Shown here piece by piece: positions 5,670-38,397 of a stretch of DNA of 41,928 nucleotides. The stretch lies in the IMG/VR virus record IMGVR_UViG_2648501336_000002, one strand, 5' to 3'. Below the pieces are notes generated by a model. It saw only the letters and a list, made by a program, of their open reading frames with translations. It was not told the origin of the DNA and searched no databases. Both the position numbers and the translations under genes were made by a program. This DNA comes from a virus (lineage: Duplodnaviria > Heunggongvirae > Uroviricota > Caudoviricetes). The first letter of the stretch is position 1, and every line of letters starts with the position of its first letter.

Positions 5670-6442
5670 CAGTTTACCCCATCGGTATTGCTTCCACCGC
5701 GCTGAACACCGCCATGAGTGTGCGTATCATCGATTGGCTTGCCGTTAGCCTTAACGCTCCCCAAGAACTCAACAGCACCAGTGATTTTTGAAGCCACACC
5801 AGAAACAACAGACCCCACCATGCCCCCCATCCAGGTTAACAGGCCATGAATGGTTACTTTCTCAGAAAAATCAGCCAGAGGGGCAACCACATCAAGACCA
5901 CCCGGAGCGACAATTTTAATTTTCCTGGTGTCAGGATTAAGCTCAAAATAGGTGCTGCCGTCGTCACTACGCAACTGTGTGGCACTGGTATTAATACCGC
6001 TAATCTTCCTCGCCTGCGACTGGGGACCGACAATACAAAACGCATCCGATAAATCATGCATTCTGTCATCGACCGGCTCCTGTATCCCGCCACTCTGCCA
6101 CCAGAAATCAATACAACGATCGGCAAAAACGACAAGACACTCATCCCCGGCTTTTACCGGAAAAGTCAACGTACAGCCTCCGCCGCGCGGGAATACCACT
6201 GGTACATCCACCAGCAGCGGGTAATTTTTGGTTACGCGGTTGCCGTCGTTGTCGGTTTCAACCGAACGAATAGCAGGCTGCACAACCGCCGTCACCGCGT
6301 CAGGATCGAATGACTGAACGATGCCAGGCAAAGCGACGCGGATCTGGTTCTTTGTGGTTTCCCGCTCGGATTTGAATGTTTCGGCAAGGTCGCCGCTGCG
6401 GGTCTGGTCAGATACTGCCATTTTGTAGGCTCCAGAAAGCAA
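5669..6442 (-). CDS. Baseplate assembly / spike protein (Mu gp45 / V-like)
   Basis: 257 aa in the track, using a TTG at 6442; a more likely start is ATG at 6421 (MAVSDQT) with a GGAG Shine-Dalgarno upstream. Confidence 0.55.
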   Translation of the reverse strand: MLSGAYKMAVSDQTRSGDLAETFKSERETTKNQIRVALPGIVQSFDPDAVTAVVQPAIRSVETDNDGNRVTKNYPLLVDVPVVFPRGGGCTLTFPVKAGDECLVVFADRCIDFWWQSGGIQEPVDDRMHDLSDAFCIVGPQSQARKISGINTSATQLRSDDGSTYFELNPDTRKIKIVAPGGLDVVAPLADFSEKVTIHGLLTWMGGMVGSVVSGVASKITGAVEFLGSVKANGKPIDDTHTHGGVQRGGSNTDGVN

Positions 6443-21149: not shown

Positions 21150-22771
21150 CAGGCCTGTCTCCCTAGCAGCTCCCAGATGTTCAGGGCTGAATTCATTGGG
21201 GCATAGCTGATCATCACCGAGTCGGCAAGGTTTGGCGACCGGGTTCCATCAGGCTGTTTATCAATAACGATTTTTCCCACACCATTAATGGAATAGGTCG
21301 GCTGCGAAAGCTCGATGATGAGTTTATCTTTGAGTGCCATGCTACTGCTGATTGAGATGATTTCGTCCGGGTTGTAAGCCATACCTTCAACCACGGCGCG
21401 CCAGGTATTCTGAAAAAGTTTACGTAACCGCCACCAGCTCTGGGCTTTGGCGTTAGCGAAGAAGTCCTTGTTCAGACGTGCGGCTTGCCCGTTGTCCCCG
21501 CGAACAGCTTCATCATCCGGATCAAATACCGCGCCACTACCTCGAAACGGTGTGGCAAGTATTGACGGTCGACGCGCAGCGTTACGCAGTTCGTTGATAG
21601 CGCGTGCATCGCCGCGAACGCCAGCGCCCAGCCCGTCCTCGTCAAAGCGAAACTCTTCGAGGTTGTCCTGTTCGCAAAAGCCGAAAACCTTCTCGACGGA
21701 CTGATAAATGTCGCTGCCCACACCGGACCATTCCCGCACATTTTCCAGGAGGAAGCCATGACGGGTGGAAAAGGCATTTTTGTCCCTGCCTTCGTCGGCG
21801 ACATCCATCGCGCCAAGTCGTTTGCCTGTTGGCTGGATACCCAGTTTGATATGCGCATCAACGGCAGCCTGTACCCATTCGGATGGAATCAGAACGCCTT
21901 CCGCTGATGCGCTGTAGTTCAGATCAAGTTCCTGTGCCACCACCACCGGATTATCGATTTTCTCGCATTCCCTGCGATACCACTCTTCATCCTTGCGAGG
22001 ATCATCCCGCCAGTGGAATGTGAATACCGGTATCTTCCCGCCATGACGCTTCTGAGCGAACGGGTTAGCCATGCCGTTAACTGAACTCAGGTCGATACGG
22101 CAACGCGTCGTTTGTGACAACGCCGCATCAATCAGCAGAGGACGCTGAAGGAATGCAGCCTCATCAACCAGATAAAGCGTGGTACGGTCACCACGACCAA
22201 TATTATCGCCAGCCTCGCCTTTGATAACGGCACCAGTTTCAGGAAACTCAACACGCATATATGGCGCGTGCTTCTTCTCACTCCACGAACCGCGAAACTC
22301 TACAGGTAGCGTTTCCACGAACTTGCGTGCCTTCCAGAACAATGCTTTCGGGTCACCAGTGCTGTCGACGTATTCCTCTTTACGGGAGCCGAAACCGATA
22401 ACCATTTCTTTGTTGAAGAGACAAAGCGAGCAGGCCAGTCCGATCGCGGTCCAACTGAGCCCCATTTCACGGGATTTTTCGGTAATACCATTCTCCCGAT
22501 TGCCCCAGCGTTCCATAATCCAGTGGATCCACTCCTCCTGCTTAGGGAAGAGTAAAAACGGAATGGTCACCGGCAGGCCATAATCAATATTACGCGGGTC
22601 CGTTGTCATGCCCCAGTCGATGATGAACTGAGCCGGATTGGTTCGGTAAAACTGCTTCAATACGGGCAATATTTCAGGATTCTGGCGAATGCGCTGTAGG
22701 CGTTCCATCCGCCATTCAAAAACCATCTGGTAATCAGGATGTTTAAAATCGAAGGGGAATGGTAACGGCAT
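21149..22771 (-). CDS. Terminase large subunit
   Basis: 540 aa; ATPase-plus-nuclease architecture and position after the small subunit. Confidence 0.8.
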
Positions 22772-22773
22772 AC

Positions 22774-23346
22774 TTAGCCCATCATTTTTCTATACGCCTC
22801 TGCAGCCTGCTCCGGCGTTAAGTTGGTAATTTCTGTTCTGACGGGTCCTCCATCAGCGCCAGTCACTTCATTTTTGACGTTGTCTTTAAACGCCTGAACA
22901 GAAACATGACGCCCAAGCAACTCAAGGTTTTTAACCTTATCAGGCCACTTAATCTTTTTAAGGATCCCGACCATTTCTCTGTCATCTCCTCGCCCCTCAA
23001 ACATTTCAGCGAGGTTAAATCCACTCAGGTACCGACGCCACGATTCCGGCCACGCAGACAGAGGCTTAATACTTAAATCGTCCTCCAGGATGTCAGCCAC
23101 ATCGAGCCTGTCGATCTCAACCAGTCGCATCAGCACATAATTCGCATCAATGCCCAGTTGATCAATACGCTCCTGCTTTAGCTCGTTAATACGGGCGCGT
23201 ATCTCAGGTTTACCGTATAGTTCAGCCCCCGTAACATGTGCTCGCCTGGAGACGTAGCCTGCGCGAATAGCTGCTTGTGTAGCATTCAGATCGACAAGAA
23301 ACTCGCGACAAAACACCTCGTGTTTTGCTTTCAGCTTCTTAGTCAT
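22774..23346 (-). CDS. Terminase small subunit
   Basis: 190 aa with an N-terminal HTH-like segment, directly upstream of the large subunit. Confidence 0.65.
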
Positions 23347-23407
23347 TTTATTTTCCAGTTATCAGGTCATTATCGAAGCCCCTCCTGGAAGAGCTTCTGT
23401 AATGCTA

Positions 23408-23932
23408 TTACCGGGACTGTTCTATTTGTCGGACACCAGCCAACTGGTTATTCGCCTTCTCGATGGCCGCCAACAGTGGGTTAATCCACAGAACAGCCTG
23501 GCAATATGTCAACGTTCTGGTGGTAGTGGCACGATCACCGGCTGAGTCAATGTCCCCGGAATCGGCGTGCAATGCGCTGGCGCGTAAACGGTTCGCGTAG
23601 TTGAGCAACCCGACAGCAATATCAACAGGAACAGGGAAATCACAGTTCTTTTCACGGAGCAGAACCTCACGGTATTTGATGACTGTCTTCTCGTGACCGA
23701 TGTCGACCAGAGAATTTAATCGGCTTGCGTTTTCTGCTATCTGGTTAAAACGATTGAAGTTTAATGCCTGATTAGCTATCACTTTCCCTTGATATTCAGC
23801 TTCACCTTCCGCTTTATCAGCCCGCAACTTTTCTGCCTGATACTTGCTGTGGTAATGGTTTGCAGACCAGACGAGCGCCCCAAAGGCAGAGAAGAAAAAT
23901 GCCGCGATGACAATCTTATAAGTCAGCTTCAT
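23408..23932 (-). CDS. Rz-like spanin (inner-membrane subunit); embedded Rz1 not verified
   Basis: 174 aa with an N-terminal TM helix, directly after the endolysin. Confidence 0.55.
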   Translation of the reverse strand: MKLTYKIVIAAFFFSAFGALVWSANHYHSKYQAEKLRADKAEGEAEYQGKVIANQALNFNRFNQIAENASRLNSLVDIGHEKTVIKYREVLLREKNCDFPVPVDIAVGLLNYANRLRASALHADSGDIDSAGDRATTTRTLTYCQAVLWINPLLAAIEKANNQLAGVRQIEQSR

Positions 23933-24392
23933 TTACCACCCCACCAGCATCTTTAAACCTGGAAATCAGGTCACCGATTTTATGTTCATACTGACCGTAA
24001 CCTGCACCAGGTAACGACGCCCAGATATTGCTGCAACGGTCGATTGCCTGACGAATATCGCCACGGTCAATCATCGGTAAAGCGCCACGCTCTTTAATCT
24101 GCTGCAGCGCCACAGCGTCCTGACTTTCTGGCGAAAAATCTTTCAGGCCAAGCTGCTTACGGTAGGCATCCCACCAGCGTGAAAGAAGCTGATACCGTCC
24201 TGCGGCTGTTGATTTAAGCTTCGGGTTTAGCGTGACAAGTTTGCGAGGGTGATCGGAGTAATCAGTGAACAACTCACCTCCGACGATAACGTCATAACCG
24301 TGATTACGTGTCGGTTGTCGCCCGTTATCCGTTCCTTCTGACCATGCCACCATATCCAGGAAAGCTTTACGTTGGGAATTTAGTGTCTGCAT
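23916..24392 (-). CDS. R: Endolysin, lambda R-type lytic transglycosylase
   Basis: 158 aa nearly collinear with lambda R as recalled (QRKAFLDMVAWSEGTDNGRQ...GRYQLLSRWWDAYRKQLGLKDFSP). Confidence 0.85.
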   Translation of the reverse strand: MQTLNSQRKAFLDMVAWSEGTDNGRQPTRNHGYDVIVGGELFTDYSDHPRKLVTLNPKLKSTAAGRYQLLSRWWDAYRKQLGLKDFSPESQDAVALQQIKERGALPMIDRGDIRQAIDRCSNIWASLPGAGYGQYEHKIGDLISRFKDAGGVVNEADL

Positions 24393-24395
24393 GAA

Positions 24396-24755
24396 TTACT
24401 CCTTAGAGCCACCAAACTTGTTACCGATTACTCGCATTGCAGCCCCACGAATAGCATCCACACCGATCAGCCCAACACCACCACCAATGGCAACAGAAAG
24501 CGATTTAGGCCATCCAACATACTCAAGAGCGGATGCAAAGGTCAGCGTCAGAGCACCACAGAGCAAAATCTCAAGCGTTTTTCGTTTCCAGCCGCCGCCA
24601 CCGCCAAAATAGGCAATGCGCAAGCCAGCCATAACAATTGACATAACCACTGCGCCCAACGGCGTATCTCCACGCCACCAACTTTGTAAGAGTTCCAGTA
24701 AGTCAGGCCAGGAATGAGGAGCATTGTGCATTTTCATACTTCCCACCTCCGCCAT
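24396..24755 (-). CDS. Holin (S-like), possible dual-start motif
   Basis: 119 aa with TM segments and a charged C-terminus; MAEVGSMKM start region offers alternative Met codons; immediately upstream of the endolysin. Confidence 0.6.
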   Translation of the reverse strand: MAEVGSMKMHNAPHSWPDLLELLQSWWRGDTPLGAVVMSIVMAGLRIAYFGGGGGWKRKTLEILLCGALTLTFASALEYVGWPKSLSVAIGGGVGLIGVDAIRGAAMRVIGNKFGGSKE

Positions 24756-24837
24756 TACGGGGTGTTGTTGAAAGGCGGGCCCTGCGTATACGCCCGTAGG
24801 ATTGGGTTATGAGCCGTCCTTCGGTGGGCCCTGAATA

Positions 24838-24862
24838 CAAAAAAAGTTCGCCATAGCGAACC
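24838..24862 (-). terminator. Rho-independent terminator upstream of the lysis cassette (tR'-like)
   Basis: Minus strand: GTTCGC-TATG-GCGAAC followed by TTTTTTTG, about 85 nt upstream of the holin start and downstream of Q. Confidence 0.45.
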
Positions 24863-25140
24863 TTGTTAAATTTGTTAAAAAAGGAAGTTATTTAACATAA
24901 TGTATGTTATAGGAACCACACGATCACCGCTCGCAATAGATTTGCGATGAAAGGCCTATTTAATCAACTTAAGTGGTCCAGAATGACGAAATTCGAGTGA
25001 ATAAGAGGTGCATAAAAAAGGGCAAAAACTGCATAGCGTTTTTTCGCGACGAAAACCCTGTTTTATTAACTTTTACTGAGAATAGAGCATTAAAAAAGCC
25101 CCAATGATTTGGAGCTCTTCGTTGAGGTCAGAAATTCAAC

Positions 25141-25575
25141 TCATACCAGCGTAGCGCAGTTTTTGCGTAGCGCACTAATACTTTTTTCATCCCTTTGAAT
25201 TTCGACCTCAGGATCCATCTGAAGGCTCACACCCAGCATGCAGAGACACCCCTCAATGAATCCCTCTGCTACCTGCAACTGCTGGCGGATAAATCCTTCA
25301 GAACAGCGACGCCGCCGCCCTATCTCACGTTTGCTTAACCCGTAGACGTAGTACAGCATAATGACGTCCAGTTCCTCAGGCTTACGGACCTGCTGCAGCC
25401 GACAGACGCAAGCATCGATAATCAGGCCATCGTCGTCACAGCAACTCAGCCTGCCAGGCGAGCTGCTGACTACCAGCCCTTTAAATCCCGCCGCTATTGG
25501 AGCCCAGCTCACTGTGGTGTTGCTATCGGCAGCCCATCCACCCCAGCGCTCTAAAACCTGTTGAATATTACGCAT
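25141..25575 (-). CDS. Q: Late-gene antiterminator Q (phage 82/21-type)
   Basis: 144 aa; MRNIQQVLERWGGWAA...CCDDD...YYV pattern matches 82-type Q proteins; located before the late promoter region and lysis genes. Confidence 0.7.
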   Translation of the reverse strand: MRNIQQVLERWGGWAADSNTTVSWAPIAAGFKGLVVSSSPGRLSCCDDDGLIIDACVCRLQQVRKPEELDVIMLYYVYGLSKREIGRRRRCSEGFIRQQLQVAEGFIEGCLCMLGVSLQMDPEVEIQRDEKSISALRKNCATLV

Positions 25576-25639
25576 AGCTCTGACCTCTACGTTTTGCTAC
25601 GAAAAATTTTTCTGAGAACTACGTCTGTTTATCCGTGGG

Positions 25640-25648
25640 TGTGGATAA
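25640..25648 (-). promoter_or_regulatory. Consensus DnaA box (TTATCCACA)
   Basis: Plus strand reads TGTGGATAA; a degenerate inverted partner TTATCCGTG lies at 25629..25637. Confidence 0.4.
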
Positions 25649-25706
25649 CGCAGTTCCGATCCGCATATTGCATGTATCAACATGCAAAAAGTTGCTAATT
25701 CGGAGT

Positions 25707-25893
25707 GGAACCACCTGCCCCCACCTGGAACCACCTTTTCCTAACCTTTCCCTCAATCGACTTATATATATATGGGGTTTCTAGTAGAAAGGCGGTTCCA
25801 GTGGTTCCAGTAGTTCCGCCCCGCTTGCCACAAGGTCTGCAAGGTGGAACCACCTTCTCTTCTAGGTGGTTCCGCGTGGTTCCAGCGGTTCCC
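25707..25893. repeat. Iteron array (GGAACCACC / GGTGGTTCC) with AT-rich spacer: putative phage replication origin
   Basis: Three direct GGAACCACC copies (25707, 25727, 25846) and six GGTTCC-core copies in the opposite orientation in two triplets at 9-10 bp spacing; TATATATATAT at 25764..25774; overlaps the last codons of the primase-helicase gene. Confidence 0.6.
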
Positions 25894-28048
25894 AAACCTT
25901 GCATTTTTTCCCCCCAATTCGCCTTTGGGCACGCTTATACCCGCAATTTTGCAAAACATTACTAATTCGCATTTCTTCGCGTTTTCCGATGCGGTCAGGA
26001 TTTAGCCCAATCGCATCACGCAAAACATCACTTGCGCGTAAAAATTCGCAATTTCGCGGAAGTTCATTAGTCATCAGGTCGGGCGTGTCGAGCCATTTCT
26101 CTACCGTTTCAAGCCAAGCATCCTTGATGGTGTACTGTTCATGGACACTCGCTGCCAGTTGTTCAGCCTCACGGAACTGGATACCCCCCAGACGCTGAAA
26201 CACCTCACGAGCCTCAGCCCAAAGTAAAAGGAGATCTCTTTTTATCGCTTTCACGTCGACTTTCGACACTTCCACGGGGAGCCAGCGACGGTTACCAGTC
26301 TTGTCCGCAAGGAATTCGTCCTCATTAGTGGTACCAACGAACACCAGGCGACGAGGAAACTGGGTGGCGAACTCCCGGTATTTCGGGATCCAGTTTTCGT
26401 GAGTACGCGTCACAAACGCTTTGATTGACTCCAGCTCTTTGGTATTAAGTCCGCGCAGTTCACCAATCTCTGCCACCAGCCGACCACGCATTTTTCGAGC
26501 GAGATCATCGTCTTTTTCGGCAAAAGAGATTTCAGTAAAAAACGCAGGATCAGGGCTCAGTGCCTCCACTCCGGAAGACTTACCGCAGCCCTGCGGACCA
26601 ACGAGGATCGGCACCATATCCGCTTTGATGCCTGGCTCCAGTACTCGCCCCGCCAACGCGGTCCACATGTACATAGACACCGCACGGGTATAAGGCGTGT
26701 CGGCGGTACCGAAGTGCGTATGGTAGAAACATTCGATGCGCGGCACGCCATCCCACTCCAGTCCGTTCAGCCAGGTGATCGCTGAATCGAATGGTTGTTC
26801 ATCGGCTGCAAGTAACACCACATCGCGAATAAGTTCACGGCCAACAGGTTTAAATCCCCGCTTTTCCATCGTGATGCGCAGGCGCGCATAATCCGCATCG
26901 GTGAATGCCCGCCATTGTCCGGATCCTGCCGGGGCAAACATGATTTCGTCGCGGAACTGGTCAAAGCGAATATCGATGTCCACAAAATCAGAGCGTACTA
27001 CTGCTTTGGCTGCATTGCTGATGGTTGCCTCGATACGCCCCCATTTATCACGCTCGAAAGCAGGCAGCGGTAAAGGTTCCGCCACTTCGATGCTGGTCAG
27101 ATCTTCGAAATCGTCGTTGCGGATCCCGATGGCATTCAGGAAATCTCCGTCATCACGATGCGCGCAACTGGCATGCAGGCATTTAAAATGCCCCTGCTCA
27201 AAGCCTGCGGTTCCCGCAGGAAAATAAACTGTGCTTGTTGGATCGCCTCCGCTACTGTGGCCGTCTTCAAACGGACAGCGGATATATCGTTCACCGTTTG
27301 CGCCATCCAGCAGCGTCCAGCCATTGGCATCAAGATATTCAGCTGTATCATCCGTCGCGCCGGGCGTGAATGCTGAACGGTCGCGCATCTTCGTGTTGCC
27401 CGCTTCGGTGGTTACCGACACAGGGAGTTGTTCAGCCAGGCGCTGCCACAGCGTTTCAAGCTGCTCACCTGTAATAGCCGGAGGTTCATCCGGCAAACCA
27501 CCGTCCCATTCAATACGCGCGCCGCTGCTGTGCGTACCACAGGCAACGAACTGCTGCCCGTTCGCCAGCAACTCGATAATGCCCATATCCCCCGCCAGGC
27601 GATGGATACGCTTACGGAAATCACCATCAACGGCCAGCAGATACAGACACTTATTACTGTTTGCTCGCCAGCGTCGCGGCGGCGACTCACCCAGAAGTTG
27701 CACAAGTGTTTTGCGAATATCTGCCTGAATGTCTTCATCTTCGCTATCGCAGTCCAGCGCCAGCCAGCCATGGCCTGTACGCACGCAGATGCCATAATCC
27801 GGTTCATTCGACCAGCGGGCAAAATCATGCTCAGTAACAACATGCCCGGTCCATTGAGCAATACCTGTGACCTGGCGGTCCCGGTTATAGCGACTCGGCG
27901 TCTTACCCAACGCTTTCAATTTACTATCAGGGGATATGGTCGCACTGGGGTTACATACAACTGGGAGAAGATGAGCAGTCCGCCCCAATACCAGGTCGAA
28001 ATGAAACCACTCATCAGGCGTAGCTCCCCATGGTTTGCTATCGGACAT
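25862..28048 (-). CDS. Replication primase-helicase (PrimPol-like N-terminus plus P-loop helicase)
   Basis: 728 aa; acidic LALDCDSEDED motif in the N-terminal half, Walker A VGPQGCGKSS in the C-terminal half; first gene after cro. Confidence 0.7.
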   Translation of the reverse strand: MSDSKPWGATPDEWFHFDLVLGRTAHLLPVVCNPSATISPDSKLKALGKTPSRYNRDRQVTGIAQWTGHVVTEHDFARWSNEPDYGICVRTGHGWLALDCDSEDEDIQADIRKTLVQLLGESPPRRWRANSNKCLYLLAVDGDFRKRIHRLAGDMGIIELLANGQQFVACGTHSSGARIEWDGGLPDEPPAITGEQLETLWQRLAEQLPVSVTTEAGNTKMRDRSAFTPGATDDTAEYLDANGWTLLDGANGERYIRCPFEDGHSSGGDPTSTVYFPAGTAGFEQGHFKCLHASCAHRDDGDFLNAIGIRNDDFEDLTSIEVAEPLPLPAFERDKWGRIEATISNAAKAVVRSDFVDIDIRFDQFRDEIMFAPAGSGQWRAFTDADYARLRITMEKRGFKPVGRELIRDVVLLAADEQPFDSAITWLNGLEWDGVPRIECFYHTHFGTADTPYTRAVSMYMWTALAGRVLEPGIKADMVPILVGPQGCGKSSGVEALSPDPAFFTEISFAEKDDDLARKMRGRLVAEIGELRGLNTKELESIKAFVTRTHENWIPKYREFATQFPRRLVFVGTTNEDEFLADKTGNRRWLPVEVSKVDVKAIKRDLLLLWAEAREVFQRLGGIQFREAEQLAASVHEQYTIKDAWLETVEKWLDTPDLMTNELPRNCEFLRASDVLRDAIGLNPDRIGKREEMRISNVLQNCGYKRAQRRIGGKKCKVWEPLEPRGTT

Positions 28049-28051
28049 GGG

Positions 28052-28252
28052 TTACACCTTTTGTCTAGCTGTCACTTCCTGAAAAAGTTTTTCTATCGCA
28101 CGTACTGTAGAAAAGCGAGGGTCAGAATGAACCCCGGTAAGAAGCCGACTAATAGAAGACTGCTTCACGCCTGCAATTTCGGCAATTTGGTTTTGGGTAT
28201 ACCCTGAATCAATCAAGCTTTTGACCATCTCTTGTGGTGTTAGTCCGGACAT
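28052..28252 (-). CDS. cro: Cro-like HTH regulator
   Basis: 66 aa with HTH (YTQNQIAEIAGVKQSSISRLLTG), divergent from the CI-like gene. Confidence 0.6.
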   Translation of the reverse strand: MSGLTPQEMVKSLIDSGYTQNQIAEIAGVKQSSISRLLTGVHSDPRFSTVRAIEKLFQEVTARQKV

Positions 28253-28392
28253 ATTTAAGTCTCCACTTTCGTCTATAGCGCAATTTATACGAAAACGGAT
28301 TACTCAGCAATACAGCAATTCTATGTCATCCTAGATTAAAATATCCGATAACGCATAATCACCGTCCCTGTATACAACATGGATGAATCCAA
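28253..28392. promoter_or_regulatory. Immunity-region operator/promoter region (OR-like) between divergent cro and cI
   Basis: 140-bp AT-rich intergenic region; contains ATAACGCATAAT (28348..28359), which recurs at the distal promoter at 29167. Confidence 0.5.
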
Positions 28393-29067
28393 ATGATTGA
28401 TACTACCGATATCCTTTCTCAAAACATCAAGTACCTGATGGACAAAGCCAAGATAAGCTCGATAACTGAGCTGGCACGTCGGTTACAGCTGAACCAACCA
28501 ACGCTACACAGGCTGGTATCAGGAGAGGTGAAAGATCCGAAATACGCAACGTTAAAGCAGATCGCCGACTACTTCCACGTGTCACCAATAGACTTGGCAG
28601 AAAGGAGCCTTCAAGAAATGGAGAAAGAGGACGCGACAGGTATAAAAACGTATATTTCTCTTAGGTTTAATAAAGTACCTGTTTTGGGAAACACTCAGCT
28701 AGGCGTTGGAGGACTTTGGAGCGACACCCAATATTCAGTAGGTAGCAGTGATGGTTTCATATACTGGCCGACAAAGGATGAAGATGCATACGCCCTGAAA
28801 TGTGTTGGTGATTCAATGATGCCTAGAATCAAAGAGGGGGAGTTCGTAATCGTCGAACCCAACCACGACTACACTCCTGGTGATGAAGTACTTGTGGTTA
28901 CCCGGGAAGGTGAGGTCATGGTTAAAACCTTCTTGTTCGAACGCGATGGCCTGTTCCATCTAATGTCTGTAAATGAAGATCATCCACCAGTCAGAGTACC
29001 ACGCGAAAACATTGAAAAAATCCATTACGTGGCGGGGATCGCCAAATCCGCGCTACGTATGTACTAA
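28393..29067 (+). CDS. cI: CI-like repressor (HTH plus S24 LexA-type autopeptidase domain)
   Basis: 224 aa; N-terminal HTH and C-terminal GDSM Ser with a downstream Lys (VMVKTF). Confidence 0.8.
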   Translation: MIDTTDILSQNIKYLMDKAKISSITELARRLQLNQPTLHRLVSGEVKDPKYATLKQIADYFHVSPIDLAERSLQEMEKEDATGIKTYISLRFNKVPVLGNTQLGVGGLWSDTQYSVGSSDGFIYWPTKDEDAYALKCVGDSMMPRIKEGEFVIVEPNHDYTPGDEVLVVTREGEVMVKTFLFERDGLFHLMSVNEDHPPVRVPRENIEKIHYVAGIAKSALRMY

Positions 29068-29097
29068 CCTTTACAGTCTGATAACTTACTTCTGATC

Positions 29098-29130
29098 AAA
29101 CCGCTCTCCACAAGGGCGGTTTTCTTATTT
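29098..29130 (+). terminator. Rho-independent terminator after cI
   Basis: AAACCGC-11 nt-GCGGTTT followed by TTTCTTATTT. Confidence 0.55.
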
Positions 29131-29151
29131 GCAAAATAATTCATTTTCGTA

Positions 29152-29180
29152 TTGACACAAAATCCCATAACGCATATAAA
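29152..29180 (+). promoter_or_regulatory. Near-consensus sigma70 promoter overlapped by operator-like motifs (OL/pL-like)
   Basis: TTGACA (29152..29157), 17-nt spacer, TATAAA (29175..29180); the spacer and -10 contain ATAACGCATAT, matching the OR-region motif. Confidence 0.45.
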
Positions 29181-29485
29181 TACGATATCGCATAATTAAT
29201 GCGTTTTTTAATACTGGCTCTTTAACAAACTGAACCGCGTGACAGGTAAGCCGCAGTACTCCTGGCAAAACGAAATAGCACCCGATGGGATCGAGGTAAG
29301 CGCCGAGTCCGTATGCGTACGGTAAGCGTAGAGGACAACACCGCGACAAACTGATAAGTCACGCAAGTTGAAACGCCCCGACGATGGGGCGCTTAGTTCC
29401 TTTTGGGGTGGGGTGAAGATCAGTCCATTGAGTCAATCCGAAGTTCAGCATCTACCACTACACCACCACCAAAGAGAACTGCTAA

Positions 29486-30010
29486 TCATCTGGCAGGTTG
29501 TAACGGTGCAGGAGTTTTGCCACTGACTTCTATATTTCGGGGAAATTTATATTCAGCGGAGCATTTATGACACTTGAGAATTTTATAAGCGGCATTAGAA
29601 GTATGGTATTGAAGTATAGACTTCATACCCGACTCATAGCATGTAGTACAAAGATAATGAGGCTTGAACTCAGGATCGTCAGTAGGCTTCAGTACATAGA
29701 CCACCGTATTGGTAATCGGGTGGTACATTTCATAGTTCATTTTCTCACTATCCCAATCCTGTTTCTTTTCCAGAAGGGATTCGAGTTCAACAATGCGCTG
29801 TTTAGCTTCGTTCAAAAGCTCCGTTAGTGCGAATTGTCCAGTACGCGCATCAATTAGTTTATCAAGTAGATCGATAGTTTTACTTTTAACATTGTAATCC
29901 ACCTGCAACGCATTAACTTCTTTTGCTAAATCAACAGCACCTTTCAAAGCACCACCAGCACTAGTGGCCGCCTCAGTTATACGCCGTACAAGTCCTTTTT
30001 CTTCAGACAT
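29486..30010 (-). CDS. Coiled-coil protein with C-terminal C4 zinc ribbon (hypothetical), convergent with cI
   Basis: 174 aa; helical N-terminus then CTTC...CHKC (CxxC-x22-CxxC); AGAGAGAAT Shine-Dalgarno-like upstream. Confidence 0.5.
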   Translation of the reverse strand: MSEEKGLVRRITEAATSAGGALKGAVDLAKEVNALQVDYNVKSKTIDLLDKLIDARTGQFALTELLNEAKQRIVELESLLEKKQDWDSEKMNYEMYHPITNTVVYVLKPTDDPEFKPHYLCTTCYESGMKSILQYHTSNAAYKILKCHKCSAEYKFPRNIEVSGKTPAPLQPAR

Positions 30011-30030
30011 CTTAATTCTCTCTAAAACTA

Positions 30031-30080
30031 TAGGGGTAAAGAGATATTAGCCGAATTCTCGCTGTAGGGGTACAGAGAGA
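30031..30080. repeat. Direct repeats TAGGGGTA(A/C)AGAGA x2 (candidate regulator-binding sites)
   Basis: Copies at 30031..30044 and 30065..30078, 34 bp centre to centre, in the 5' region of the 174-aa gene. Confidence 0.3.
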
Positions 30081-30149
30081 GCCATCTCGTCTGACGTGGT
30101 TAAAAGCAGGCATTCGCTGACATCCAAGTAATTGCTGTGTGTAGCCTTT

Positions 30150-30176
30150 GCCCGCCTCAAGTGACGGGCTTTTTTA
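30150..30176 (+). terminator. Rho-independent terminator immediately upstream of the early-left genes
   Basis: GCCCG-10 nt-CGGGC followed by TTTTTT. Confidence 0.5.
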
Positions 30177-30234
30177 TGTCTGAAAGCGCACTCGCAACAG
30201 CGTGCTCCCCGATATGAAAAAAGGAATACAACCG

Positions 30235-30384
30235 ATGAAACCTGAATACCTCCATCGACTGACGGGGCGCGATGTTCTCCGTTATCGCCGTAAAAACTTC
30301 GATTTGATGACCGGTCTGGCCGTTGCCACTGCGCTCGGTCTGATCATCACTTTCATTCTCCTTGTAGCGAGGACCACAGTATGA
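30235..30384 (+). CDS. Small membrane protein (49 aa), first gene of the early-left operon
   Basis: ATG at 30235 is preceded by AAGGAA (the track start at 30202 is a GTG); C-terminal TM helix LAVATALGLIITFILLV. Confidence 0.4.
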   Translation: MKPEYLHRLTGRDVLRYRRKNFDLMTGLAVATALGLIITFILLVARTTV

Positions 30385-31283
30385 GTTTAGAAACCAGTCT
30401 CGAACTTAATAATCAACTTCTGGCACAACATAATGCGCTGCTTGAACGTCTTATCCGCACAATGGCATCAGGCATTGTTATGCATCCTGACACGATTTCA
30501 CGAGTGCAGGAATGTCGGGATACAGCAACTGAAACTGAAAATATGTCAGCGGCAATGACACTGGATGATCTGGAGTTCAGCGACGTTATCGCACTGGCTG
30601 GTTTCTACCCGGTAGCCACCCCTATCACAGAAGACATGCTGCAACGTGCTGTTGCCTACCGTGATGCTGAAGGCGATAAACGAGTAGTTCAGATTGATGC
30701 TCTCGACAGCGCATTGCAGGGCGTCAAACGAGCCAGGGCGCTGCTTAAACCTGCTCTCCTGGACCTGTCCCGTAACATCCTTAAGTTCTGGGACGACCTG
30801 CCAACCATCGGCGAGCGACGTGTTTTTGCCGAGCAGCTACTTGATGCACCTGCGGATGGGCGTGATGAAGTTAAGCCGAAAAAGGCCAGTAACAAAGATG
30901 GAGAACGCACGGGGCCGTTTTACGTCAAAAATGTATCCGGCACAGCAGCCAGTGAACTCCACACCTTACGCAAGTTGAACGAGATGCTGAAAAAAGGCCA
31001 TATCGAGATCAACCGTGTTGAGTACCTTCAGCTGCAAGAAGAATTTGCACGCAGAGACGCAGCAAATTCCAGCCAGAATCATGACGCCAAAGATGACCAT
31101 ACAATTGATTTCGCGGCACTACGCAAACAAGCTGAAGGGTTGATCCTCCAGTTAGCAAAAGGGGGTTACCGGGCAGAAGCTATTGCAATTCTGGAAAAAC
31201 AGGGAGCCAGGAAACTTGGTGAAGTAACGGATGAAAATCTCGCTGAAGTAATCACCCTGGCTGAAAAAGCACTGGAGGGTTAA
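30381..31283 (+). CDS. Hypothetical early protein
   Basis: 300 aa, acidic and helical, translationally coupled to neighbours. Confidence 0.45.
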
Positions 31284-31285
31284 TC

Positions 31286-32587
31286 ATGCCAGACGTTCAT
31301 GCACAACTTTCTCCATCATCAGCGCATCGATGGATGCGCTGCCCAGGAAGTCTGGCGCTGGAGGCCACACAACCGGATAAAGAAACAACTTTTGCAATCG
31401 AGGGCACTGCAGCGCACGCGCTTGCTGAAAAAGTTCTACGAAACAGGCAAAGCTACCCGGAACACTACGCCGGATGCAATGTTTCTATGTTTCTCGGCTC
31501 ATACCCCCTTCGCGAAAATCCTGATGATACATCTGGCCCACAGGTGGATGATGAAATGGTCGAAGCCGTTGGCCGGTATGTTGATACGGTCTGGACTCTT
31601 GCACAGAATAATGAACTATTGGTTGAACAACGTGTTGATTTCTCACATATAACGGGTGTGGAAGAATCTTTCGGAACTGCCGACGGCATAATCATTGCTG
31701 GTAGCGAATTACAAATCCACGACCTGAAATATGGCAAAGGCGTCCGCATTGATGCAGAACAAAATGAGCAACTACAACTGTATGCTCTGGGTGCGCTCGA
31801 ACAATTCAGCATGCTGTATGACTTTGAGACTGTAAGATTATTTATTCACCAGCCAAGGCTCAACCACGTTTCAGAATGGTCGTTAACCGTACAGGAACTT
31901 CAGTCTTTCGGTGAACGGGCACTGGAGGCCGCAACCAGTGCGATCCTTGTTCTCAATATTGCTGAATGCGAAGGCATTGAGACACTACCGCTGGAAAACT
32001 TCATACCTGGAGAAAAACAGTGCCGCTTCTGTAAAGCAAAAGCTATTTGCACTGCCCAGAAAATGCAGCATTTACAAACAGCGGCCAGCGATTTTGAAGA
32101 TCTGACAAAGCCTGTCAGCGAAATAATCTCCAATGCCAGCGCACGTGTACCTCTGTTAACCATTGAGCAGCTTGCGGAGATCTATAGCCAGGCCGACTTT
32201 ATTGAATCCTGGCTAAAGGCAGTACGAGACCGGGTTCACAATGAACTCAATGCCGGACATCCGGTACCGGGGTTTAAACTGGTAACAGGAAAACAAGGTA
32301 ACCGGGCCTGGAGTGATGAAGAGGCAGCTCGCGCACTTCTGAAGGACCAGTTCAGGTACAAAACTGAAGAAGTATTCGACTTTAAACTTATTAGCCCCAC
32401 AAAAGCCGAAAAACTTATCAAAAAGGCCAGTCCGCGCCGTTGGTCAAAAGTCGAGGCACTGATAACACGAGCTGATGGTAAACCCACCATCGTTCCCGAG
32501 TCAGACCCACGCCCCGCACTCAATATCAACCCTGTAAATGATTTCGACGACGTATCCGACGATACGCTAACCGCAGACCTCATCTGA
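31286..32587 (+). CDS. PD-(D/E)XK Cas4-like exonuclease (DUF2800-type)
   Basis: 433 aa; IHDLKYGKG nuclease-like motif and a [10 protein letters not shown] cysteine cluster. Confidence 0.55.
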
Positions 32588-32602
32588 TTTAAGGAAATAC
32601 CC

Positions 32603-33151
32603 ATGAAACTGAAGCTGAACAATGTTCGTCTGGCCTTCCCGTCTCTGTTTGAAGCTAAAACTGTAAACGGCGAAGGCGATCCACGTTTCTCCGCAGTATT
32701 TTTAATGTCACCCAAACACCCACAACTGGAAGAAATCCGTAAAGCTATGAAGCAGGTAGCGAAGGAAAAATGGGGAGAGAAGTGGGAGCCCATTTATAAC
32801 CAACTGGAGAAAAAACTCAATCTGTGCCTGCATGATGGTGATGAAAAAGCAGAGTATGAAGGCTTCCCCGGCAATTTCTTCCTGAATGCTGCTAACAAAG
32901 CGCGCCCAGCTGTTCTTGATCGCGATCGTTCGCCACTTATTCAGGCTGATGGACGTCCCTATGCAGGGTGCTATGTAAACGCCGTTATCGATATCTGGGC
33001 ACAGGACAATAATTTCGGTAAACGCATTAATGCCTCACTCGGCGGAGTCCAGTTCCTGCGAGACGGCGATGCATTCGCTGGCGGCGGAGTGGCAAGCGCT
33101 GACGATTTCGACGATATCAGCGAAGGTGCTGATGCTGAAGCACTGATTTAA
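32603..33151 (+). CDS. Phage ssDNA-binding-like protein (DUF2815-type)
   Basis: 182 aa with an acidic C-terminal tail (DDFDDISEGADAEALI); lies between the nuclease and the polymerase. Confidence 0.5.
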   Translation: MKLKLNNVRLAFPSLFEAKTVNGEGDPRFSAVFLMSPKHPQLEEIRKAMKQVAKEKWGEKWEPIYNQLEKKLNLCLHDGDEKAEYEGFPGNFFLNAANKARPAVLDRDRSPLIQADGRPYAGCYVNAVIDIWAQDNNFGKRINASLGGVQFLRDGDAFAGGGVASADDFDDISEGADAEALI

Positions 33152-33166
33152 CCCTACTTCATAGAC

Positions 33167-33185
33167 GCCCGGTTAAATACCGGGC
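33167..33185. terminator. Stem-loop between convergent genes (weak terminator)
   Basis: GCCCGG-TTAAATA-CCGGGC; no strong U-tract on either strand. Confidence 0.3.
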
Positions 33186-33203
33186 TGCTGATTAGGCGTA
33201 TAA

Positions 33204-33833
33204 TCACTCAGGAATCTTAATCTTCCTCAATTCTTTATTTAGTTCACAGATCTTCTTCTTAGACGGGAAAGTATCATACATCCAAAAACCAACAGTCTCT
33301 AAAACTATTGTCATAACCATATACACAAGATAATTTAAAAGGCCTTCATTTTGCCCTATGGAAATAATGCAGATAATAGAAAAAAGGATAAACAGCACAA
33401 AACACAGAAAGGAAAACAGACGACTAATAATAAATAAAAAACCTGAAAAATTAACATTGATGAAAAACACTCCGTTATCTTTCTCTATATAATTCTGAAG
33501 CTTAATCACCTGATTTATATACTGTCTTTTTTCTAATCTATTGCAAATGTAAATAACATCACTTCGGTTATAAGAAGATTGCAATTTCAGCGCATCACGA
33601 ATAATTTTATCATTTATTCTTTTTTCTATGGCACTCTTATCCTCCTTATCCAGATAACGTTCATACTTAACTAAATATAAAATTAACTTCTTGACATATT
33701 TAGGCTCTTTATACTTATAATTAAAAATGATCTTTCTTATCCAGACTCCCATAACAATCAAACATGAAAAAATATATCCAGCTATTTTCTCCAGATGCTC
33801 TGTATGGTCAATCAAGTATTGGATCATATGCAT
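33204..33833 (-). CDS. AT-rich membrane protein (about 3 TM), antisense moron; candidate exclusion / abortive-infection protein
   Basis: 209 aa, strongly AT-rich, Lys/Ile/Tyr-rich; hydrophobic segments near the N-terminus and at about residues 125-170; opposite strand to the flanking replication genes. Confidence 0.5.
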   Translation of the reverse strand: MHMIQYLIDHTEHLEKIAGYIFSCLIVMGVWIRKIIFNYKYKEPKYVKKLILYLVKYERYLDKEDKSAIEKRINDKIIRDALKLQSSYNRSDVIYICNRLEKRQYINQVIKLQNYIEKDNGVFFINVNFSGFLFIISRLFSFLCFVLFILFSIICIISIGQNEGLLNYLVYMVMTIVLETVGFWMYDTFPSKKKICELNKELRKIKIPE

Positions 33834-35948: not shown

Positions 35949-36164
35949 ATGTCATTTAAATACCGGGACAATCCACTTTATTACAGGGCTGCAAGGGAGG
36001 CTTTGCGACTTGAACAATCCGGCGAATATGACCGGGCAGCGAAGGTCTGGGCAAAAGCCAACCGCGAATCACATCACGAACTGAATCAGGAATGGAGTGA
36101 ACGCAGATCTGATTTTTGCCTGATGCAGAATATGCGTGAAAAGCGTAAGGCGGTCGAAGAATGA
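35949..36164 (+). CDS. Small regulatory protein, possibly PerC-like
   Basis: 71 aa; AREALRLEQSGEYDRAAKVWAKA resembles PerC-family proteins (recollection only). Confidence 0.35.
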   Translation: MSFKYRDNPLYYRAAREALRLEQSGEYDRAAKVWAKANRESHHELNQEWSERRSDFCLMQNMREKRKAVEE

Positions 36165-36460
36165 TCGTTTACGTTGCCGGGCCGATGAGCGGTTACGAGC
36201 AATTTAACCGCCCGGCTTTTCATTCCGCAGCAAAGAGGCTAACGGACAAGGGATATGTTGTGCTTAACCCCGCAACTTTACCCAATGGTTTGACACAGGC
36301 TCAGTATATGGACATCTGCCTCGCAATGCTTCGCTGTGCCGATACGATTTATATGCTCAAAGAGTGGGAGTACTCTGCTGGCGCACGTGCAGAAAACGCG
36401 TTGGCAGAGAAACTGGAATTGAATGTGCTTTTTGAAGAGTGGGATTCAGATGGCCTATGA
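36161..36460 (+). CDS. Nucleoside 2-deoxyribosyltransferase-like protein (DUF4406-type)
   Basis: 99 aa beginning MIVYVAGPMSG. Confidence 0.4.
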   Translation: MIVYVAGPMSGYEQFNRPAFHSAAKRLTDKGYVVLNPATLPNGLTQAQYMDICLAMLRCADTIYMLKEWEYSAGARAENALAEKLELNVLFEEWDSDGL

Positions 36461-36719
36461 ACGTGAAAGCCTTATCGAAAAGCACCTCGTCGCTGAAGTG
36501 AAAAAAGCTGGCGGAGTGGCCTTTAAGTTTGTATCTCCCGGTCACCGCTCGGTACCGGATCGCATTGTCCTGCTACCAGGTGGTCGTATCGTTTTCGTTG
36601 AATGTAAATCTCCCGGCAAGCCACCACGGCCTGACCAATTGCGCGAACATGAACGTCTGCGAAAACTGGGCTTTACCGTAGTGGTGCTGGATAGCAAGAA
36701 CCTAGAGAGGATATTATAA
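36450..36719 (+). CDS. VRR-NUC domain nuclease
   Basis: Likely ATG at 36450 (MAYERESLIEKHL); PD-(D/E)XK-type motif PDRIVLL...VFVECK; precedes the SNF2 helicase as in typical VRR-NUC/SNF2 pairs. Confidence 0.6.
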   Translation: MAYERESLIEKHLVAEVKKAGGVAFKFVSPGHRSVPDRIVLLPGGRIVFVECKSPGKPPRPDQLREHERLRKLGFTVVVLDSKNLERIL

Positions 36720-36723
36720 AAAT

Positions 36724-37293
36724 TTAGTCAATGCCTTTTTGATTGAACTTCTGATTCTCCAGTATGCTTTGCAGCTCAATATTATCATTTGCAGCGGTTT
36801 GTTTATGCTCATGATATTTTTCTTGCGTATAATTTCTTTCTCTTAGTTTCTGTGCGTAATTATTAGAAATAATATCATGACGATCTTGTAATACTTGTTC
36901 AAGTTGACTTTTAAAGTCCTCTATCTTTTCATTAGAAATAACATTTTTGTACTTTTCAATATCACGGCGAAGTTCTTTTTCTTTCTTCTTATTAATGCTT
37001 AATAACTGTCGATTAACGCTACCTAAGGACCATTTAAACCCAATCGACTTTATCCAATGCGCCAGAAACATAGCGCAACTGGGAAGCATTAATAAAAGAA
37101 ATGGCTTTATTGTATTTAAATCAGAACCAATATACGGAAAACGACCGTCCCACGAGGACACCAGTAATGTTAAAAAACCAGTGATGCCACCAGCAGCAAC
37201 ATTAGAAATCAGAGGGACTTTTTCGTAGCTATCAGGTTTAGAAGCGCTACTCAAACGTCCCTCCTTTGACTGATCTTCCAGCACGAATGGCAT
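36724..37293 (-). CDS. Membrane protein with charged coiled-coil C-terminus (third gene of the antisense cassette)
   Basis: 189 aa, AT-rich; two hydrophobic helices (about residues 30-48 and 63-85) then a Lys/Glu-rich helical tail. Confidence 0.45.
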   Translation of the reverse strand: MPFVLEDQSKEGRLSSASKPDSYEKVPLISNVAAGGITGFLTLLVSSWDGRFPYIGSDLNTIKPFLLLMLPSCAMFLAHWIKSIGFKWSLGSVNRQLLSINKKKEKELRRDIEKYKNVISNEKIEDFKSQLEQVLQDRHDIISNNYAQKLRERNYTQEKYHEHKQTAANDNIELQSILENQKFNQKGID

Positions 37294-37495
37294 TCATTGC
37301 AATTTTGTAAAATTCATCATCAGAAGAGACATCAACGACATCGCGACGGACAACTCCTTCTGAGTCAACACATTCAAGAACAAGATGATGTTTAGGCATA
37401 AGCGCAAAGCGTAACCGGTCAAACCCCATCTTAAGAACCCAATATAGTACGGGAAGCAGGCTAAAAAAAGCCAGCCAAAAAGCAAAAGCAATCAT
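37247..37495 (-). CDS. Small membrane protein (second gene of the antisense cassette)
   Basis: 82 aa; N-terminal TM helix IAFAFWLAFFSLLPVLYWVL; overlaps the downstream gene by 47 nt. Confidence 0.4.
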   Translation of the reverse strand: MIAFAFWLAFFSLLPVLYWVLKMGFDRLRFALMPKHHLVLECVDSEGVVRRDVVDVSSDDEFYKIAMNAIRAGRSVKGGTFE

Positions 37496-37518
37496 AGCCC
37501 CCTCCCCATGTGAATCTA

Positions 37519-38397
37519 CTATAAGATGCCGTGTACTTTAACAACTATGTACGTTTTGTCCAGCGAATTCAAGTTCTCACGGACGAGCAAATCAACGCAG
37601 TAAGCATCACTAAAAACACCAGGTTCTCTTCCCGTACTAACACGTTGTAAGAACTCAGTATCTTCTATAGACACGCTGATTGTGTCATCGCCATAGTTGA
37701 CTCGCCAGCCTGTGTTTTTATCCTTATGAATAGTCAAAAATGTGATTAGAGCCTCTTCAATCACCCTTTCAGACAAGGACTGCACTACAGGAACGCGCCT
37801 ATATCTGAACGGTTCAATATTATCTTCGTGCACCTTAATCAGCTCAACCCCCTGTTGAGTTGAAATTTTAAGCGATTCGTATCCTTCCTTTTGCAAAGGA
37901 TTATGAATTAACTTCGATAAGGATTTGCGTATGCTTGGTGAGGCAAGTAAAGGCCGGAAATATGACGGGGCTATAATTTCCTCACCATCATCCATAACTA
38001 TTTTACAGTCTCCTTCCGCTGTTAAAGTCAACCGTTTTATTTGCCTACCATTGATCTGACGAATTAAGTCAATGAGAGTATTTCCTGCTGCGAGTGCAGT
38101 TGTACCTCCAAGCCCAATAATGCTTAATATATTCAAATGGTCAAGTGGATTTTGAATAACATCAATCAAATACTCAAATGAGCCTTCCTTAAAAGGCTCA
38201 ACCTCAACATTAATACACTCACTAGTGCCATTGACAACCAAATTAACTTCTTTAAGCAAGTTGTTTAGTCCATTCAATGACTCAGTTAAAACATCCAAAT
38301 CTATTTTATGATCTGCTAGTGCGGGACCATCATATTTAACAACTAATTTATCAGTAATATTTTCTTCTTGCTGGACATCTGTATAAGCTGAGGTCAT
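37519..38397 (-). CDS. Hypothetical soluble protein (first gene of the antisense cassette)
   Basis: 292 aa, AT-rich, no recognisable catalytic motif; AAGGAA Shine-Dalgarno 7 nt upstream of the ATG at 38397. Confidence 0.5.
   Translation of the reverse strand: MTSAYTDVQQEENITDKLVVKYDGPALADHKIDLDVLTESLNGLNNLLKEVNLVVNGTSECINVEVEPFKEGSFEYLIDVIQNPLDHLNILSIIGLGGTTALAAGNTLIDLIRQINGRQIKRLTLTAEGDCKIVMDDGEEIIAPSYFRPLLASPSIRKSLSKLIHNPLQKEGYESLKISTQQGVELIKVHEDNIEPFRYRRVPVVQSLSERVIEEALITFLTIHKDKNTGWRVNYGDDTISVSIEDTEFLQRVSTGREPGVFSDAYCVDLLVRENLNSLDKTYIVVKVHGIL

Follow-up and report, generated by a model that had tools for sequence, protein, structure and literature searches.

The early-left control region of a temperate Escherichia coli prophage was found to carry, at a fixed promoter-proximal position, a consensus boxA followed by a 128-nt folded RNA domain, and this combination occurred independently of phage immunity type and backbone. 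The domain is a real and conserved RNA family, apparently undescribed. On balance, the boxA and the fold together are best read as a processive antitermination site equivalent to nutL, in which the fold would stand in for boxB and N or would act like put. Three forms of phage processive antitermination are known: the N/nut system, Q, and put, which works as RNA alone in HK022 and related phages. If the reading is true, a perfect rrn boxA with a large conserved fold and no recognisable N would be another phage use of the host Nus machinery, and it would provide a compact natural system for what a boxA complex needs to have added in order to beat intrinsic terminators. All coordinates refer to the window, the whole 41,928-nt stretch of DNA that was analysed, and the features are listed in Table 1.

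Table 1. Position, strand and basis of the features in and around the early-left leader.
Feature	Position	Strand	Basis or remark
VapE-type primase	25862-28048	-	
cro-like gene	28052-28252	-	
cI, HTH and S24 peptidase domains	28393-29067	+	
cI transcript terminator (intrinsic)	29098..29122	+	10-bp stem then T-rich tail
pL-like sigma-70 promoter: TTGACA 29152-29157, 17-nt spacer, TATAAA 29175-29180	29152..29180	+	Read from sequence
Operator-like 18-nt repeats in tandem, 29159-76 and 29177-94, covering spacer, -10 and start site	29159..29194		Repeat search
boxA, GCUCUUUAACAA, same as rrn boxA core	29217..29228	+	Sole exact copy in window
boxA-P1 spacer ACUGAACC, invariant GAA	29229..29236	+	Alignments of types
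Conserved structured RNA domain, 128 nt	29237..29364	+	Comparative, covariance model
P1, closing helix	29237-43/29358-64	+	Pairs verified on sequence
P2	29244-48/29257-63	+	Pairs verified on sequence
J2/3, conserved unpaired 16-nt segment GGCAAAACGAAAUAGC	29264..29279	+	Identical in types A-D (partly by design of the search patterns)
P3, hairpin with bulged A 29294	29280-86/29290-97	+	Pairs verified on sequence
P4	29300-03/29326-29	+	Pairs verified on sequence
P5	29309-13/29318-22	+	Pairs verified on sequence
Unpaired AGAGGAC with GAGGA core, 3' of P4	29330..29336	+	Model-based alignment
Variable linker	29337-57	+	
GC-rich hairpin	29375..29391	.	Conserved in types A and B only
174-aa insert gene, phrog_1244	29486..30010	-	Context, outside the element
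RprA-like element, ending in strong intrinsic terminator 30150-30176 and T run	30066..30179	+	Rfam RF00034
First early-left genes: small membrane protein (30214-30384) and 300-aa protein (30381-31283)	30214..31283	+	

Genome context and early-left promoter

The window is an E. coli prophage. Its stretch at 29131-29485 showed 100% identity to IAI1, ETEC H10407, O103:H2 12009 and others, and the insertion site of the prophage in IAI1 lies between yfhH and yfhL. The early module is of the Yersinia phage YeP4 / APSE kind (DUF2800, DUF2815, DNA polymerase A and VapE primase). The early-left operon covers ~11 kb of the + strand and encodes a small membrane protein, a 300-aa protein, DUF2800 and DUF2815 proteins, DNA polymerase A, a TIR protein, a VRR-NUC protein, a helicase and an excisionase-like HTH protein. 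Three reverse-strand inserts are placed in this operon, the 174-aa gene and two further on. A Q-family antiterminator gene sits in the short rightward operon. Equivalents of the cI terminator were also located 3' of cI in L059, L094 and L097, three of the related loci.

A near-consensus promoter past the cI terminator, claimed in an earlier sequence-only reading of this DNA, was recovered as TTGACA-17-TATAAA with 11 of the 12 consensus positions matched, a score that was reached by 3 of 2000 random 90-nt windows taken from these loci. The automatic promoter scan had passed over it solely for demanding T at the last -10 position. Transcription is predicted to start at ~29185-29188. The same reading had noticed that the 10-mer ATAACGCATA is common to the promoter and the cro/cI region; it was indeed present in exactly two copies in the 41.9 kb, at 28348 (cro/cI intergenic) and at 29167 (promoter spacer and -10), both inside 18-nt repeats, and a copy with one mismatch was found at 29185. 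In addition to the tandem pair over the promoter, a third copy of the 18-nt repeat occupied 28340-28357 in the cro/cI intergenic region. The looser motif ATANCGCAWWW had five sites in the window, four of the five in the two control regions (0.84 expected). Because the operator-like repeats are common to the promoter and the cro/cI region, we infer that CI binds and represses the promoter. These shared repeats, together with a layout of cI, terminator, promoter and early operon that recurs in relatives with other operator sequences, give good sequence support to the earlier proposal of a CI-controlled OL/pL-like promoter.

Promoter matches of at least 9/12 within 90 nt upstream of the element were found in 48 of 67 distinct upstream regions (72%) compared with 5% of random windows, and across the 67 regions boxA lay a median of 32 nt past the -10 box. 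The 67 regions formed 28 clusters at 80% identity. Since the same RNA thus follows at least 28 promoter/operator sequence clusters, it is independent of immunity specificity. No + strand promoter of at least 9/12 was found between 29181 and 30385, which leaves the pL-like promoter as the sole strong candidate for the early-left operon.

Distribution and sequence types

The RNA domain was present in >80 phage or prophage contigs and had five sequence types, four plus one divergent form. An initial pattern scan of viral contigs produced 76 loci, and more were obtained from further scans and a protein-anchored search. Type A includes the window and most loci, type B consists of L010, L050, L052 and L163, type C of L006, L017, L026 and L059, and type D of YeP4 and its relatives, which are without P4 and P5. 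The divergent form is L169. Whatever the type, the element stood at the head of a long operon, directly after the repressor gene, the repressor terminator and the promoter. Each stretch of DNA compared had a single copy of the element, and no second boxA or covariance-model match was found in the rightward early operon of the window.

A total of 107 of 5,426 complete E. coli genomes (~2%), including ETEC H10407 and O103:H2 12009, carried the element unannotated, and an RNA overlooked in that share of genomes would merit a family entry and annotation. The species-representative genomes contained two true matches only, in Trabulsiella and Pluralibacter. The plasmid collection showed no match to the element, and the E. 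coli core genome showed no similarity to it.

A consensus boxA near the transcript 5' end

The boxA reads GCTCTTTAACAA. It lies on the sense strand ~30 nt past the predicted transcription start, close to the 5' end of the RNA, and is essentially unpaired in the predicted fold. It had been overlooked in the first reading of the sequence. The stretch GCTCTTTAACA(A) at 29217-29228 fits GYTCTTTAANA, the functional boxA consensus in gamma-proteobacteria (PMC5725501). A consensus boxA at the 5' end of a transcript is where NusB-S10 is known to load, and together with SuhB and the remaining Nus factors it blocks Rho-dependent termination (PMC5725501; PMC3177189). The boxA was unchanged in types A-D, with the surrounding leader of Yersinia phage YeP4 just 72% identical, and this invariance is partly built in, as most loci were retrieved with a boxA-requiring pattern; L092 and the loci retrieved via a protein are free of that bias. 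Two natural variants that surfaced after the search patterns were relaxed, GTTCTTTAACA (L092) and GCTCTTTAAAA (L087), differ at degenerate consensus positions only. Types A-C agreed in the length of the boxA-P1 spacer, and type D had one additional nt.

A folded RNA domain supported by covariation

The helices were first recognised by eye in unaligned sequences of different types. A covariance model was then built from type A alone with the hand-derived structure and searched for the other types, which scored 118-128 bits (B), 85-94 bits (C) and 27-33 bits (D). From a plain all-type MAFFT alignment RNAalifold had recovered almost nothing, the middle of that alignment being wrong, and hand-derived helices, the covariance model and pair counting were used instead. 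Covariation and structure across relatives had been named as a check in the sequence-only reading, and the outcome supported a structured RNA: in the model-based alignment 96.4% of cells were paired compared with 81.7% in shuffles, 0 of 500 shuffles were as good, and 17 of the 28 pairs were altered on both sides, all of these statistics coming from an alignment fitted to the covariance model. Slid-partner controls were 19-38% paired.

The closing helix P1 showed compensatory changes (GCGUGAC/GUCACGC, GCAUGAC/GUCAUGC and GCACUG/CAGUGC), and in P3, the stem sequence of which was different in every type, 7 of 7 pairs covaried with 100% pairing. P2 was the weakest helix (89% paired, one covarying pair), and its region possibly forms other pairings with the GAGGA segment. 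Frequent G-U pairs fit an RNA of the + strand only. Separate single-sequence minimum-energy folds of all four types returned P1 and the bulged-A P3 each time. Folding energy was unremarkable against shuffles (z = +0.65 for 29188-29410 and +0.17 for 29237-29364), and for this reason the structure claim rests on comparative evidence. Pairing of the P2 loop with the variable linker, either as a pseudoknot or as a long alternative helix, was rejected, since by eye the changes among the type A variants were not compensatory.

The identity of J2/3 across types A-D came partly by design, as two search patterns demanded this segment; in L163, a locus retrieved via a protein, it reads GGCAAACUGAAAUAGC. 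The GAGGA segment was AGAGGAC in types A and B, AGAGGAU in type C and UGAGGAG in type D. From the four hairpins listed in the sequence-only reading, 29281-29289 and 29309-29320 persisted with slightly shifted registers in the covarying helices P3 and P5, respectively. The hairpin at 29189-29203 overlaps the second operator-like repeat and was not conserved, and the one at 29375-29391 was restricted to types A and B.

Rfam 15 gave zero matches at gathering score for the window and zero matches at E up to 10 for 29210-29372, and the element in L003, L010, L059 and L094 gave zero matches at E up to 1. No tRNA or tmRNA was found with the corresponding search. Finally, the searchable genome papers of phages YeP4, BZS1 and APSE and a preprint on the Pas sRNA had no mention of the element.

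Leader downstream of the domain

The GC-rich hairpin that follows the domain has TGCAGTGAATTAAT on its + side in most relatives, with no T run, and TTTCAACTT on its - side; in the window the + strand tail is CTTAGTTCCTTTT. It probably terminates leftward transcription coming from reverse-strand inserts; on the + strand it is at most a weak terminator or pause. In vB_EcoM-606R2 a different reverse gene is found in place of the 174-aa gene, and minimal leaders have none.

The RprA-like element matched RF00034 with 45.5 bits (gathering score 70) and E = 4.5e-4, which is not a full-length match at gathering score; only its 3' half, a seed-like segment and the terminator, aligned well and was nearly identical to RF00034. 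In most relatives the RprA-like core motif was kept, ~200-275 nt ahead of the first large early gene. The terminator at 30150-30176, which the earlier reading had placed before the first early-left gene, proved to be the 3' end of this match and is the last barrier ahead of the early-left genes. Between the promoter and the first of these genes there is ~1 kb of untranslated RNA that includes the 174-aa gene in antisense and a C-rich, G-poor stretch at 29850-30050. Since no other promoter of at least 9/12 was found between 29181 and 30385, pL transcripts must cross this untranslated ~1 kb, the terminator and two more reverse genes. Type C leaders enter genes without a predicted terminator for ~1 kb.

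Exchange of leaders among related phages

Type C phages had no protein in common with the window phage except a TIR fragment within the DNA compared, and their order of cI, terminator, promoter, boxA and RNA was unchanged. As far as the data reach, no phage protein travels linked with the RNA. Internal deletions were found in L043, which has lost P5, and in L137, which has lost P2 through P3, and both deletions run between GGTAAGC copies. Serratia phage BZS1 has a type C leader through boxA, followed by a different RNA closed by AGUCACCCAG/CUGGGUGAC. In L170 and L172 the RNA after boxA is another one, with a closing helix of 17 bp, and L094 has a different RNA domain after boxA, with a long-range closing helix.

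Neither boxA nor the RNA was present in at least 26 close relatives, L097 among them, in which an early protein was 99% identical. In L097, the relative inspected in detail, another leader with a 64-aa ORF precedes the same RprA-like terminator. The element is therefore replaceable, as near-identical relatives with the same RprA-like terminator do without boxA and RNA. The exchange of leader cassettes among near-identical phages provides ready-made comparisons.

Comparison with known antitermination systems

The element resembles the lambda nut site in lying promoter-proximal in the early-left transcript, after a cI terminator and an operator-bearing promoter, in having boxA followed by a specific RNA structure at a fixed short spacing, and in the presence of terminators before the early genes. 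It differs in that its boxA is the full rrn consensus, whereas the lambda boxA is the weaker CGCUCUUA, and in that a 128-nt multi-helix domain takes the place of the 15-nt boxB hairpin. The short hairpin with a GNRA-like pentaloop near boxA that marks lambda boxB was not present, boxA being followed by ACUGAACC and then by the 5' strand of P1. Moreover, no N-like gene was found and there was no second (nutR) site in the rightward operon of the window. Leaders of rRNA operons share the same boxA at the start of a long untranslated RNA, directly upstream of the 5' strand of a long-range helix. Unlike them, the present leader belongs to a repressor-controlled phage early operon, has a phage-specific conserved fold and must pass a strong intrinsic terminator.

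The EAR (eps-associated) RNA of Bacillales, for which processive antitermination has been reported with cofactors unknown, is likewise a structured cis-acting RNA of roughly 120-140 nt within a long operon; it is from another phylum and context and is without boxA. Rfam includes the EAR family, and the window matches no Rfam family. The put sites of HK022 are ~70 nt long, with two stem-loops, in two copies and with no boxA (PMC9378689). Like putL and putR, the element is a cis-acting structured RNA just past pL in a temperate coliphage for which no N protein was found, and one that could act on RNA polymerase independently of factors. Unlike put, which works without Nus factors and lies in both early operons, it is 128 nt long with three to five helices inside a closing helix, occurs in a single copy and has a boxA. 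The all-type covariance model gave a best score of 9.2 bits, which is not significant, on HK022 bases 22000-33500 (immunity region), and no boxA was found in that region. The mEpimmI phages, which are Nus-dependent and have the N-like protein Gp17, were set aside as a different phage group.

Proposed mechanism and alternative explanations

Antitermination, Nus binding and the contacts of the folded domain are predictions from the sequence comparisons, and they would combine as follows. In the lysogen, CI on the tandem operators would shut the promoter. Upon induction, transcription would begin at ~29186, and the nascent RNA would expose the consensus boxA at ~+30, after which the 128-nt domain would fold and be closed by P1. 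NusB-S10 would bind boxA and, with NusA, NusG and SuhB, would remain on RNA polymerase; such retention of the Nus complex on the polymerase is established for rrn-type boxA elements. The folded domain would then supply the role played by boxB and N in lambda or by put in HK022, through direct contacts with the elongation complex or as a docking site for an additional factor. A polymerase modified in this way would withstand Rho across the ~1 kb untranslated leader and would pass the terminator at 30150-30176 and the three reverse-oriented inserts, allowing expression of the ~11 kb of early genes. In the older literature, rrn-type boxA complexes are mainly anti-Rho and weak at intrinsic terminators, and the key step would therefore hang on the activity of the folded domain.

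A structured leader or cis-acting antitermination RNA was one of the options offered in the sequence-only reading, and the boxA, the covariation-supported domain and the N-like gene not found in the window favour it. Counting against an antitermination site are the replaceability of the element, the internal deletions in L043 and L137, and the single copy, unlike nut and put, and a phage-encoded partner may lie outside the DNA compared. A bolder version, which is advanced only tentatively, is that boxA and fold form a self-sufficient RNA antiterminator needing no phage protein. By fusing the rrn-type Nus loading site of the host to a put-like or factor-binding fold, it would add a third kind to the phage antitermination RNAs. 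It would also belong to a set of interchangeable leader cassettes, along with other boxA-linked closed RNAs and a small protein, that temperate enterobacterial phages swap at the heads of early operons.

A strict nut site is a rather unlikely explanation. The fold would here be an oversized boxB equivalent for an unrecognised phage-encoded N-like antiterminator, and polymerase would stop at the leader terminator without that protein, creating a timed delayed-early switch. The layout of boxA followed by a specific RNA structure at a fixed spacing is that of nut, and the differing RNA cassettes after boxA in related phages resemble boxB specificity among N proteins. The 64-aa ORF of the boxA-less leaders is placed where lambda has N, between pL and the terminator, and several early proteins are without known function, the downstream proteins of the early-left operon matching families of unknown function only. 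However, the claim of the earlier reading that no N-like antiterminator gene is evident held up, as a search of window ORFs of up to 200 aa for arginine-rich segments matched only spurious overlapping ORFs, and no plausible gene among them had an arginine-rich N-type motif. In addition, in minimal leaders and in type D the stretch from the promoter to the first terminator-like hairpin has no ORF, phages of types A and C share the RNA and not the proteins (apart from the TIR fragment, in the DNA compared), and the same RNA is paired with at least 28 types of promoter and operator.

The boxA-plus-fold antitermination site also has to be weighed against a CI-controlled trans-acting sRNA, which is improbable. 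Such an sRNA would mainly regulate mRNAs of the host or the phage and would extend from the promoter either to the 29375-91 hairpin (~215 nt) or as far as the RprA-like terminator, with boxA serving only for Rho protection. A strong promoter with downstream terminator-like hairpins in types A, B and D would suit it, the terminated product of a minimal leader would finish in the RprA-like seed and terminator, and StxS is a precedent for a terminated phage leader working as an sRNA (PMC7547250). It leaves boxA unexplained, however, as well as the type C leaders with no predicted terminator for ~1 kb, and the 29375-91 hairpin is without a + strand T run in most relatives. Conservation is in helices and junctions and not in an obvious seed beside a terminator, and the early-left operon would be left without another strong promoter. 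The earlier suggestion of an antisense regulator of the 174-aa gene is unlikely, as this gene is a variable reverse-strand insert that is absent or replaced in most RNA-bearing relatives.

Little credence is likewise given to control of elongation by boxA alone. The fold would then be no processive antiterminator but would stabilise the 5' end, serve as a processing site or sense locally, in the manner of an attenuator or riboswitch, at the next hairpin. In rrn, suhB and further loci, boxA by itself is enough for Nus-dependent activity against Rho (PMC5725501), P4 and P5 are dispensable in nature, being missing in type D with P5 also lost in L043, and close relatives live without the element. 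Against this, the domain showed no alternative pairing with the downstream hairpins, no terminator adjoins it in type C, and a pure stabiliser would have no use for an invariant single strand of 16 nt. A specific partner acting with the boxA complex is suggested by the constant distance from boxA to the fold, the invariant GAA of the spacer, the strictly conserved J2/3 and the bulged-A hairpin P3.

Finally, a DNA-level feature (origin iterons or a GGTAAGC protein-binding array) or a coding one (the 46-aa reverse-strand ORF at 29222-29362) is most improbable, because although there are three GGTAAGC copies within 83 nt and phage records annotate a reverse-strand hypothetical protein here, GGTAAGC is missing from types B-D, types C and D have a disrupted reverse ORF, compensatory changes preserve pairs, and many G-U pairs work on + strand RNA only. 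The GGTAAGC repeats of the sequence-only reading are present at 29245, 29295 and 29321 and are not a conserved motif; a functional repeat was rejected, as they are limited to type A, overlap helix ends and junctions and mark deletion end-points. The same reading saw no plausible ORF in this stretch, and accordingly there was no + strand ORF and the 46-aa reverse ORF was open in types A and B only.

Leader RNAs linked to boxA

The same boxA was followed by unrelated RNA domains in Serratia phage BZS1 and in two further loci (L170 and L172), and in all three the domain was closed by a long-range helix, which suggests that boxA-linked leader RNAs form a broader class. Among relatives carrying the type A folded RNA, L043 and L137 showed natural internal deletions with end-points within the GGTAAGC repeats; the L043 deletion removed P5 and that of L137 removed the P2 loop through P3.

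Close relatives whose early protein was 99% identical lacked both boxA and the folded RNA. They comprise L097 (1745-2300), which was inspected as their representative, and at least 25 loci like it, including L096-L132. The leader of L097 is a different one, with a 64-aa ORF (2033-2227) that follows the promoter and precedes the RprA-like terminator, the interval occupied by N in lambda. This ORF had no match in Pfam or PHROG.

Genes and candidate signals of the early-left operon

The element preceding the early-left genes matched RprA (Rfam RF00034) with 45.5 bits (E = 4.5e-4), below the gathering score of 70, and the likeness was confined to its 3' half, consisting of AAUUGCUGUGUGUAGCCUUUGCCC and the terminator. 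In most relatives, with and without the boxA-RNA, the motif was found approximately 200-275 nt 5' of the first large early gene. A pL leader, if terminated, would carry the RprA-like seed at its 3' end, an arrangement that recalls StxS (PMC7547250).

Two other candidate signals lie on the predicted pL transcript. Rho might load at a C-rich, G-poor stretch of untranslated RNA antisense to the 174-aa gene, and a -10-like CATAAT could cause sigma-dependent promoter-proximal pausing. The CATAAT is part of the second operator-like repeat and is peculiar to the immunity type of the window.

Three reverse-strand genes sit inside the early-left operon; phage vB_EcoM-606R2 has a different gene in place of the first. 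The operon also contains a TIR-domain gene, and a fragment 61% identical to it was present at L059 11585-11845. That fragment is found approximately 6 kb 3' of the type C element, in a phage otherwise unrelated to that of the window. Finally, type C, type D and phage BZS1 have in common a conserved hairpin (ACCCUGCCGC ... GCGG.AGGYAUAAAAC) that is directly 5' of the first early gene and may act as a signal for translation or processing.

Coordinates of leader RNAs, genes and signals in the window and related loci
Feature	Location	Strand	Remarks
Leader RNA, BZS1	L094 2516-2642		Closing helix AGUCACCCAG/CUGGGUGAC
Leader RNA	L170 683 to ~870		17-bp closing helix
Leader RNA	L172 from 885		17-bp closing helix
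CATAAT	window 29191-29196	+	Initial transcribed region, ~+5 to +10
Reverse-strand gene 1	window 29486-30010	-	174 aa, phrog_1244
C-rich stretch	window 29850-30050	+	GC skew -0.3 to -0.4
RprA-like element	window 30066-30179	+	
Reverse-strand gene 2	window ~33193-33822	-	
TIR-domain gene	window ~35997-36758	+	
Reverse-strand gene 3	window ~37487-38284	-	
ACCCUGCCGC hairpin	L059 ~6150-6190		Type C
ACCCUGCCGC hairpin	L003 ~5290-5325		Type D
ACCCUGCCGC hairpin	L094 2783-2822		BZS1
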